64,000 nt of DNA from Escherichia coli (GTDB lineage: Bacteria > Pseudomonadota > Gammaproteobacteria > Enterobacterales > Enterobacteriaceae): assembly GCF_041248615.1 (NCBI RefSeq), contig NZ_CP158426.1. One strand, given 5' to 3'. Shown here in pieces: positions 48,984-50,418 of this stretch. Every line of letters begins with the position of its first letter. The first letter of the stretch is position 1. The notes under the pieces were generated by a model. The model had not been told where the DNA came from and did not search any database. It was given only the letters and a program-made list of their open reading frames with translations. The translations under genes and the position numbers were made by a program.

Positions 48984-49446
48984 CGTTTTACTCTGTGTTG
49001 GCAATAGCATGATGGGCGATGATGGCGCAGGTCCGCTGCTGGCGGAAAAGTGTGCCGCCGCGCCGAAAGGTAACTGGGTGGTGATTGACGGCGGTAGCGC
49101 ACCGGAAAACGACATCGTCGCTATTCGCGAACTGCGCCCGACACGACTGTTGATTGTCGACGCCACGGATATGGGGCTAAACCCCGGCGAGATCCGCATC
49201 ATCGATCCGGATGATATCGCCGAGATGTTTATGATGACTACCCATAACATGCCGTTGAACTACCTTATCGACCAGTTGAAAGAAGACATTGGCGAAGTGA
49301 TTTTCCTCGGCATCCAGCCGGATATCGTCGGCTTTTACTACCCGATGACCCAGCCGATTAAAGACGCCGTAGAAACCGTTTATCAACGACTGGAAGGCTG
49401 GGAAGGGAATGGCGGATTCGCGCAGTTAGCGGTGGAAGAAGAGTAG
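48976..49446 (+). CDS. hycI: hydrogenase 3 maturation protease
   Basis: 156 aa; N-terminus VLLCVGNSMMGDDGAGP typical of hydrogenase maturation endopeptidases. Confidence 0.92.
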   Translation: MTDVLLCVGNSMMGDDGAGPLLAEKCAAAPKGNWVVIDGGSAPENDIVAIRELRPTRLLIVDATDMGLNPGEIRIIDPDDIAEMFMMTTHNMPLNYLIDQLKEDIGEVIFLGIQPDIVGFYYPMTQPIKDAVETVYQRLEGWEGNGGFAQLAVEEE

Positions 49447-49506
49447 TTCGTAGACAAACATGTTCACGTTTTGGAATTTGGACGTGCAATTGTGACGTGT
49501 AGACAG

Positions 49507-49527
49507 GTGTTTACATATTGTGAACAC
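49507..49527. promoter_or_regulatory. imperfect palindrome GTGTTTACA-N3-TGTGAACAC; candidate antitoxin operator
   Basis: 9-bp arms with one mismatch, about 85 nt upstream of the HigB-like ORF; a related GTTCAC half-site lies at 49462-49467. Confidence 0.35.
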
Positions 49528-49612
49528 CCGTGTGATCAACTACTATAGAAAAATAAATCCGAAGGAATGGTAGTCCAGGTTTAGTCATTCAGGCGCTAAT
49601 AAGGAAGTTAAA

Positions 49613-49924
49613 ATGCACATCATTTCGAAAGCGCCATTTGAAGAGTGTGCGCGCAAATATCCTAACGACGCTCTGGCTCTACACTCATTGTATCGGGTTA
49701 TTAAGGAAACGGATTTTTCTACACCAGAAGAAATGCGAACGGCGTTTCCTAACCTCGACAATTTTAAATATCGCAACAAATGGTACGTTCTGGATGTCGG
49801 CGGGAACAATCTTAGGGTTATTGCCTACATAAACTTTGTTAATAAGCGGTTCTTTGTGAAGCACATAACGAATCACGCAGAGTATGACAAACTGACACGT
49901 TACTACAGAGAGAACAAAGAATGA
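49613..49924 (+). CDS. HigB-like type II toxin (RelE/ParE superfamily mRNA interferase)
   Basis: 103 aa; alignable by eye to K-12 HigB as I recall it (shared ...KYP...FPSLDNFKY...GGNELRVVA... pattern); AAGGAAG RBS. Confidence 0.8.
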   Translation: MHIISKAPFEECARKYPNDALALHSLYRVIKETDFSTPEEMRTAFPNLDNFKYRNKWYVLDVGGNNLRVIAYINFVNKRFFVKHITNHAEYDKLTRYYRENKE

Positions 49925-50340
49925 CTGCTAATGCTGCACGCGCTGTTAAAGCAACAAGAGAACTGGTCAATGCAGTCCCCTTTCTGGGAGGCAGTGACTC
50001 AGAAGATGATTATCGTGAAGCACTGGAACTGGTCGAATATTTGATTGAAGAAGATGACACCAATCCACTTATCGACTTTCTGGCGAGCCGCATTGCAGAA
50101 TATGAAAACAACAACGAAAAGTTTGCAGAGTTCGACAAAGCCGTTGCAGCAATGCCGGTTGGCGTGGCGTTACTTCGTACGCTGATTGATCAACATAATT
50201 TGACCTATGCGGATTTGAAGAACGAAATCGGCTCTAAATCTCTGGTCAGTCAGATTTTGTCTGGGCAACGATCCCTGACGATATCCCATATTAAGGCACT
50301 TTCAGCCCGATTTGGCGTTAAGCCGGAATGGTTTCTTTGA
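49921..50340 (+). CDS. HigA-like antitoxin (XRE-family HTH)
   Basis: 139 aa; 4-nt ATGA overlap with the toxin gene; resembles K-12 HigA as I recall it (AVPFLGG, GSKSLVSQILSGQRSLT). Confidence 0.8.
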   Translation: MTANAARAVKATRELVNAVPFLGGSDSEDDYREALELVEYLIEEDDTNPLIDFLASRIAEYENNNEKFAEFDKAVAAMPVGVALLRTLIDQHNLTYADLKNEIGSKSLVSQILSGQRSLTISHIKALSARFGVKPEWFL

Positions 50341-50366: not shown

Positions 50367-50391
50367 GCCCGATGCGCAACGCTTATCGGGC
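50367..50391. terminator. hairpin between convergent higA-like gene and ascB
   Basis: Perfect 7-bp stem GCCCGAT/ATCGGGC with 11-nt loop followed by TTTCCTGGTT. Confidence 0.4.
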
Positions 50392-50418
50392 TTTCCTGGT
50401 TCGTGCGACGGTAGTTAC

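Follow-up and report, generated by a model that had tools for sequence, protein, structure and literature searches.

The question raised by this Escherichia coli locus is what acts on a short inverted repeat located in front of a higB-like toxin gene, and whether it is the antitoxin encoded by the second gene of the same operon. Autorepression through a palindrome in the promoter is textbook for toxin-antitoxin (TA) modules of type II, and the finding of such a site is therefore ordinary in itself. A first-pass annotation of the window (the whole stretch of 64,000 nt analyzed here) had proposed that an inverted repeat overlapping the promoter is the autoregulatory operator of the antitoxin. 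At the level of sequence comparison this proposal is strongly supported by the conservation footprint of the site, by a promoter layout shared with paralogous modules, and by co-variation of the operator with the recognition helix of the antitoxin. Literature searches on the window's locus, its clade or the operator motif retrieved no paper. What is gained is a defined layout of operator and promoter for a clade that is widespread and for which we found no published study.

The higB/higA gene pair

The genes of this region are arranged in the order hycF, hycG, hycH, hycI (ending at position 49446), a 166-nt intergenic region, the higB/higA pair, ascB and ascF, the last two being convergent to the higB/higA pair. 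Within E. coli, the higBA module is a variable insert between hycI and ascB. The distinguished features of the operon are as follows.

49601-49607, plus strand: Shine-Dalgarno sequence AAGGAAG, separated from the higB start codon by 5 nt (from inspection of the sequence)
49613-49924, plus strand: higB-like toxin gene, 103 aa, Pfam PF09907 (HigB_toxin)
49921-50340, plus strand: higA-like antitoxin gene, 139 aa, with a C-terminal HTH_3 domain at residues 85-138
within 49921-50340, plus strand: recognition-helix region of the antitoxin, SKSLVSQILSGQR

The toxin gene is placed first and the antitoxin gene second in a single operon, and the start codon of higA overlaps the stop codon of higB in the 4-nt sequence ATGA. 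In the K-12-type family, the toxin is a ribosome-dependent mRNA endonuclease that its antitoxin neutralizes. The higB reading frame is intact and homologous to that of the K-12-type toxin. Its product matched the Pfam model PF09907 (E 3.8e-23; 82 bits, with a cut-off of 27) and no other Pfam model, aligned over its full length with PDB 5IFG_A (E 7e-22), and shares 39% identity with K-12 HigB and 58% with Salmonella SehA. The antitoxin matched Pfam HTH_3 (E 2e-9), aligned over its full length with PDB 5IFG_B (E 2.5e-35), and is 46% identical to K-12 HigA and 45% to SehB. No NCBIfam model matches either the toxin or the antitoxin. The label “higB-like” used in the first-pass annotation is correct, because the toxin matches PF09907 and both proteins align over their full length with the K-12/Shigella HigB and HigA chains of the crystal structure.

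On sequence grounds the pair is assigned to the K-12 type of HigBA (a PF09907 toxin and a HigA protein with a C-terminal HTH), and not to the Rts1/Pseudomonas type. All sequence features of the K-12-type family could be recognized at this site, i.e. the gene order, the toxin family (RelE-like), the antitoxin architecture (~138 aa, N-terminal domain for toxin binding and dimerization, C-terminal XRE-type HTH) and an inverted-repeat operator over predicted promoter hexamers.

The Rts1/Pseudomonas-type antitoxin is ~100 aa long, has an N-terminal HTH, and is distinct from the K-12 type (PMC6987408). In HigBA of Proteus vulgaris Rts1 and P. aeruginosa, a HigA dimer binds inverted repeats of the operator, and the promoter contains two operators, O1 and O2 (PMC12266136). 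These systems, for which there are HigA-DNA crystal structures, resemble the module of the window in their toxin-first order and in the inverted-repeat operators within the promoter, but they differ in the N-terminal HTH of their ~100-aa antitoxin, in a toxin of another Pfam family, and in unrelated operator sequences. The window module falls outside this type, as its HTH is C-terminal and its toxin matches PF09907 alone. Because both the antitoxin architecture and the operators differ, the two types are analogous, not homologous, in their DNA-binding arrangement. The higBA system of IncC plasmids (PMC8265657), considered as a possible relative, is of a different type.

An inverted repeat upstream of higB

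Two nested palindromes, neither assigned to a strand, were distinguished in the intergenic region.

49509-49525, no strand: core of the predicted operator O1, GTTTACA-TAT-TGTGAAC, with 7-nt arms (49509-49515 and 49519-49525) and a 3-nt spacer; exact match to GTTYACANNNTGTRAAC
49503-49531, no strand: allele-specific palindrome with 13-nt arms, ACAGGTGTTTACA-TAT-TGTGAACACCCGT, 11/13 matching in the window

The palindrome noted in the first-pass annotation is present: positions 49507-49527 read GTGTTTACA-TAT-TGTGAACAC; the arms comprise 9 nt, with a single T/C mismatch at arm position 6. A repeat finder extended the arms to 13 nt (49503-49515 and 49519-49531), of which 11 match. In strains E2348/69, ETEC4068 and AR_0372, which have G at 49505, 12 of the 13 arm positions match, and the six positions flanking the O1 arms are all complementary in E2348/69-like strains (5/6 in the window). 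In other loci, however, positions outside the 7-nt arms are complementary no more often than by chance (0.21-0.39 at positions 8-13, over 38 distinct sites), and the 13-nt extension therefore lies outside the conserved operator. Arms of 9 or 13 nt were ruled out as the functional unit on the same basis. The 9-bp arms that had been described as the operator are thus too long: the conserved arms comprise 7 nt, and the outer GT/AC is absent from the second E. coli allele and from the orthologues. As read from the sequence, the centres of the two O1 half-sites are 10 bp apart, which corresponds to one helical turn.

Considered by itself, the sequence is no more than suggestive. Of the dinucleotide shuffles made of the 166-nt intergenic region, 11% contained a palindrome with 9-nt arms, at most one mismatch and a spacer of 0-6 nt, and the 64-kb window contains 103 palindromes of such quality. 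A palindrome with 13-nt arms and at most two mismatches occurred in 0.85% of the shuffles of this region. The core pattern, GTTYACANNNTGTRAAC, has only one match in the whole 64-kb window even if up to two mismatches are allowed, and this match, at 49509-49525, has none. In the ~200 kb of fetched loci, about 0.003 exact matches would be expected by chance (an estimate); dozens were observed, all upstream of higB.

A GTTCAC hexamer located further upstream had been proposed as an additional half-site. It is present at 49462-49467, but comparative analysis lent no support to a role as an auxiliary half-site, which was ruled out: the hexamer is missing in the O121-type allele and in every orthologue, and strain WL297 has ATTCAC in its place. 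Moreover, a given 6-mer or its complement is expected within ~60 nt a few percent of the time (an estimate), and the occurrence of GTTCAC is not above chance. The pattern GTAGACA...TGTTYAC occurs twice, and that stretch aligned best to O1 of locus L002 (the O121-type allele). A decayed tandem duplication of ~48 nt comprising the operator region was unsupported (global score equal to the shuffle mean, local p ~0.23), and the interpretation of the upstream GTTCAC as a relic of a duplicated operator failed the shuffle test.

Conservation of the putative operator core

For the comparative analysis, 28 loci from species-representative genomes were selected by alignment of antitoxin homologues, and Salmonella and plasmid copies were added later. 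Wherever an orthologous locus has an intact higB gene, the pattern GTTYACA-N3-TGTRAAC was identified upstream of it, in over 12 genera and on plasmids. The core was found in Leclercia, Mangrovibacter, Kluyvera, Citrobacter, Yokenella, Pluralibacter, Phytobacter, Pantoea, Mixta, Photorhabdus, Xenorhabdus and Salmonella, as well as on Klebsiella and Enterobacter plasmids. All exact core matches within the 39 fetched loci are situated just upstream of a higB homologue, and none occurs elsewhere in these loci. The flanks of the core are unalignable between loci, and the genomic contexts (chromosomal, prophage-like and plasmid) are unrelated.

For the information content, each genus was represented by one locus, and the loci were anchored on the first site. 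It reaches 1.93 of 2 bits in the O1 arms, 1.75 bits in the arms of the second operator (O2; see below) and 1.55 bits in the -10 hexamer; the upstream flank has 0.29 bits, and the 15-nt spacer between O1 and the -10 hexamer has 0.58 bits.

A similar footprint is visible within E. coli. The higB/higA coding DNA of two alleles, the window type and the O121 type (L002), is 97-98% identical, whereas the DNA upstream of higB (window 49447-49612 versus L002 2434-2606) is 52-59% identical. Within this divergent region, a 23-nt island around the palindrome is identical at 22 of 23 positions and the Shine-Dalgarno block (49597-49612) at 15 of 16. The sharp boundary between coding and intergenic identity suggests replacement by recombination or deletion, and not gradual divergence. 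The window-type allele was identified in 343 genomes, including that of E2348/69, and divergence within it is too low to reveal purifying selection; WL297, the most divergent strain of this type, has one change at the outermost arm position.

The O121-type allele carries a 253-aa gene between hycI and higB (L002 1672-2433), whose product has a signal-peptide-like N-terminus and belongs to no Pfam family. In SE15-type strains only the first 60 or so codons of this gene are kept.

Predicted promoter layout and the second operator

Orthologous loci usually contain two sites exactly 38 nt apart (start to start), the -35 hexamer being part of O1 and the -10 hexamer bordering on O2. Orthologue O1 has the spacer TAT and contains TTGTAA, 17 nt upstream of the conserved TATAGT-like hexamer. 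O2 (GTTYACA-TAA-TGTAAAC) begins directly after the -10 hexamer and therefore covers the expected transcription start. The corresponding positions in the window, where the promoter was placed by homology of position in O1-anchored loci, are listed below.

49518-49523, plus strand: predicted -35 hexamer TTGTGA, in the spacer and right arm of O1; 4/6 consensus
49541-49546, plus strand: predicted -10 hexamer TACTAT, in the columns of the conserved TATAGT/TATAAT when anchored on O1; 4/6 consensus
49547-49563, no strand: eroded O2 position, AGAAAAATAAATCCGAA, no longer a palindrome

Counterparts of the -35 hexamer occupy the same position in the orthologues (TTGTAA), in sehAB (TTGAAA) and in plasmid locus L043 (TTGTCA), always 17 nt upstream of the -10 hexamer, for which the O121-type allele has TATAGT. 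From this placement, transcription of the window operon would be expected to start near 49552-49554. A sigma-70 consensus scan called no plus-strand promoter here, because the total of TTGTGA and TACTAT (8/12) is below the threshold of 9/12.

The window thus retains one half of the two-operator layout, i.e. the O1 core at 49509-49525 with the -35 and -10 hexamers in the orthologue columns; no O2 match was found at 49547-49563 even with three mismatches allowed. In the O121-type allele O2 is a decayed remnant with indels. O1 is the only operator left in the two E. coli chromosomal alleles, O2 having been lost, and this O1-only version has a longer leader of ~60 nt. The O2 sequence that would restore the site after TACTAT in the window is GTTCACATAATGTAAAC. 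Relatives from Pantoea and Mixta show the opposite arrangement, with O2 as the single operator, and the number of operators therefore varies within the clade.

In Kluyvera genomosp. 3 (L022 2501-2916) both operators are intact. Its antitoxin gene appears frameshifted, since the translation breaks down in the C-terminal half.

Comparison with K-12 HigBA and Salmonella SehAB

The K-12 higBA promoter has been characterized by a mapped start site, repression by HigA in lacZ fusions, and Lon-dependent induction (PMC2814082). According to a summary in a later paper, both K-12 HigA and the complex of HigB and HigA have similar nanomolar affinity for the operator (Jadhav 2020, cited in PMC8138530). 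K-12 HigBA (ygjN/ygjM; PDB 5IFG, 6KML) belongs to the same protein families as the window module, and the 7-3-7 palindromes of both share the pattern GTTnnCA-N3-TGnnAAC. In K-12, too, one palindrome (GTTGCCA-ATC-TGGCAAC) lies over the -35 hexamer and one after the -10 hexamer, a second, degenerate copy being located right after TATCAT. The K-12 system differs in its half-site (GTTGCCA), in the recognition helix, which has R where the window antitoxin has Q111, and in the geometry of the promoter: the first palindrome carries the -35 hexamer TTGCCA in its left arm, and 29 nt separate the two sites (L001 1460-1530, minus strand). In the window's clade, Ewingella, sehAB and plasmid L043, the right arm contains the -35 hexamer and the distance between the sites is 38 nt, so that K-12 is shifted by about one helical turn. 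K-12 HigBA is a separate locus which, judging from separate genome counts, probably co-occurs with the window's module in many genomes.

The SehAB module of Salmonella Typhimurium (STM4031/STM4030.S) is likewise toxin-first, with a C-terminal-HTH antitoxin and the toxin and antitoxin identities given above (58% and 45%). Its locus was found in a record filed as a plasmid, with flanking genes and protein termini that match the published primers. The promoter contains GTTTTCA-ACT-TGAAAAC and GTTTTCA-GGT-TGAAAAC, 38 nt apart, and the TTGAAA within O1 is 17 nt from TAAATT, which abuts O2. SehAB thus shares with the window's clade two 7-3-7 palindromes at the same distance, a -35 hexamer in the right arm of O1 and a -10 hexamer abutting O2. 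It differs in its half-site (GTTTTCA versus GTTYACA), its helix (SKSNVSNIL versus SKSLVSQIL) and its chromosomal locus, and it has two operators where the window has O1 only.

SehB shifts a fragment of the sehAB promoter in an electrophoretic mobility shift assay (EMSA), and the substitutions S107A, L121A, L129A and F140A abolish binding (PMC7160566). The equivalent residues of the window antitoxin, S105, L119, L127 and F138, are invariant across the clade. An earlier paper describing two sehAB palindromes and their affinity (PMC3868539) has been retracted and was therefore not relied upon; the EMSA of the 2020 paper (PMC7160566) stands. A 79%-identical Salmonella protein was ruled out as SehB, as it is encoded in a mobile or prophage-like context and its termini are unlike those of the published primers. 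The record in which the sehAB locus was found, L046, is a 178-kb Salmonella entry of the plasmid collection that carries the chromosomal sehAB-fabY neighbourhood.

Taken together, K-12 HigBA, SehAB and the window's clade share one promoter layout. The half-sites found in it can be grouped according to the recognition helix of the antitoxin.

Helix ..SKSLVSQILSG..: half-site GTTYACA; window's clade, including a Desulfuromonadales relative at 48% identity
Helix ..KS(M/L)VSR..: half-site GTTnCCA; K-12, Ewingella and the E. coli IncF plasmid L043
Helix ..SKSNVSNIL..: half-site GTTTTCA; SehB and a Serratia plasmid

Antitoxins with ..VSQ.. are paired with A at half-site position 5 and those with ..VSR.. 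with C, while the ..SKSNVSN.. antitoxins (SehB and Serratia) are paired with TT at positions 4-5. Plasmid L043, which was looked at afterwards, agreed with the R-C rule. The co-variation was seen in no more than a handful of independent lineages, and the contacts that it would imply, Gln with A and Arg with the G opposite C, are chemically reasonable. One helix residue thus tracks one operator position (Q-A, R-C, N-T), which suggests how paralogous modules present in one cell might avoid cross-regulation. Three lines of comparative evidence, namely that the site travels with the module, that paralogues share the layout, and that the helix co-varies with the half-site, point to the module's own antitoxin as the binder of O1.

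Distribution of the module, orphan antitoxins and plasmid copies

Of 5,426 complete E. coli genomes, 1,091 carry higB, so that the full module occurs in ~20% of them, and 2,508 carry the antitoxin gene. By subtraction, about 1,417 of these genomes, roughly one in four, have an orphan higA. Three orphan variants were read (L003 1669-2299, L004 1672-2302 and L042 1245-1735); in each of them the operator, the promoter and almost the whole of higB have been lost by deletion, and the orphan higA lies behind the remnant of a hypothetical gene.

Relatives at 60-90% identity were identified in more than 500 plasmid records, and relatives of the antitoxin in ~2,500, mostly conjugative Klebsiella plasmids (loci L040, L041, L043 and L045). 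In L043 the higB gene is frameshifted. L045 lacks higB; its HigA-like gene immediately follows a RelE/ParE-HTH pair. Two metagenome-assembled genomes, labelled Collinsella (L005) and Citrobacter (L020), contain contigs 99% identical to the E. coli antitoxin; these probably represent binning contamination.

Proposed regulation and alternative explanations

On the comparative evidence, the 17-nt core at 49509-49525 is very probably operator O1 of a K-12-type HigB/HigA operon, to which the cognate antitoxin would bind for autorepression. A dimer of the antitoxin encoded at 49921-50340 would place its two C-terminal HTH domains in successive major grooves on the two 7-nt half-sites. As the right arm holds the -35 hexamer TTGTGA, the bound dimer would cover this hexamer and keep RNA polymerase off, and the operon would therefore repress itself. 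Loss of the antitoxin would then cause derepression, which in K-12 proceeds via Lon during translational stress (PMC2814082). If the clade behaves like K-12, the toxin would neither aid nor impede binding of the antitoxin.

It is quite unlikely that the site is a vestige, descended from a real HigA operator and no longer exerting meaningful autoregulation in a decaying E. coli locus, although several features are in keeping with decay. O2 is eroded in both E. coli alleles, the 5′ leader has lengthened, and the hexamers are weak (4/6 each). In addition, ~1,417 of the 5,426 genomes keep the orphan higA alone, the promoter and operator being deleted in the three orphan loci read, and K-12 and O157 have no such module at all. 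With O2 lost, and higB and its promoter deleted in many strains, the locus may be decaying and O1 could be a recent relic. On the other hand, O1, the -35 and -10 hexamers at canonical spacing, the Shine-Dalgarno sequence and the intact frames of higB and higA are kept in 1,091 genomes, and an O1 island with 22/23 identity within intergenic DNA of 52-59% identity is hard to explain without selection. Use of a single operator position is also seen in the Pantoea and Mixta relatives. Even less probable is a structural role, in which the palindrome would form a stem-loop at the 3′ end of hyc transcripts (a terminator or stabilizer) or a cruciform. The plus-strand RNA folds with -15.3 kcal/mol, the arms extend to 13 nt in the window-type allele, and the distance from the hycI stop codon to the palindrome is 60 nt, a stretch in which no other terminator was called; yet 10 of 200 shuffles fold as well (z-score -1.9), and an intrinsic terminator or known RNA was rejected in the absence of a U-tract, a terminator call and an Rfam match. 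Furthermore, the stem extension is unconserved, and the 17-nt core accompanies higB into many non-hyc contexts, including plasmids, so that a hairpin would at most have an added, allele-specific role.

The site might instead belong to another host regulator (a TyrR-, CRP- or FNR-like box), or consist of promoter hexamers, TTTACA and TTGTGA, that are symmetric by accident. The TyrR box is TGTAAA-N6-TTTACA and the CRP box is TGTGA-N6-TCACA, and the arms of the palindrome do contain TTTACA and TGTGAA, which resemble -35 hexamers and TyrR or CRP half-sites. However, the order and spacing of the dyad are unlike either consensus, and the site changes in step with the recognition helix of the antitoxin across clades while the layout stays fixed. 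Accidental symmetry of hexamers does not agree with the recurrence of the same site as O2, on the downstream side of the -10 hexamer, a position that requires no -35 hexamer. We regard both versions of this explanation as highly improbable. The last alternative, a chance palindrome devoid of function, could draw on the frequency of 9-nt-arm palindromes in the shuffles (11%) and in the window (103), but its likelihood is practically nil, as it is effectively refuted by all of the conservation evidence, i.e. by the matches in the fetched loci and the information content.

Possible additional roles

Beyond autorepression by the antitoxin, which we favour, the E. coli chromosomal copy could be more than a simple autoregulated module, either through rewired control of the toxin or through an anti-addiction function. 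We consider this rather unlikely. In the first case, read-through from the hyc operon, which is induced anaerobically, might be countered by the single operator, acting partly as a roadblock or hairpin; this idea is based on the loss of O2 together with the gain of a near-perfect 29-nt palindrome 60 nt after hycI, with no terminator called between. If so, expression of the toxin would be tied to formate metabolism. In the second case, the orphan antitoxin might be an anti-addiction and trans-repressing factor against incoming plasmid-borne higBA, since its recognition helix is the same as in the Klebsiella and Enterobacter plasmid copies read, and the operators are likewise the same.

A further hairpin was noted at 50368-50392, between the convergent higA and ascB genes. 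It has the sequence GCCCGAT...ATCGGGC (7-nt stem, 11-nt loop), is followed by TTTCC, and could serve both genes as a terminator or belong to the REP-like elements. It was missed by the terminator scan, probably on account of the scan's 8-nt loop limit.
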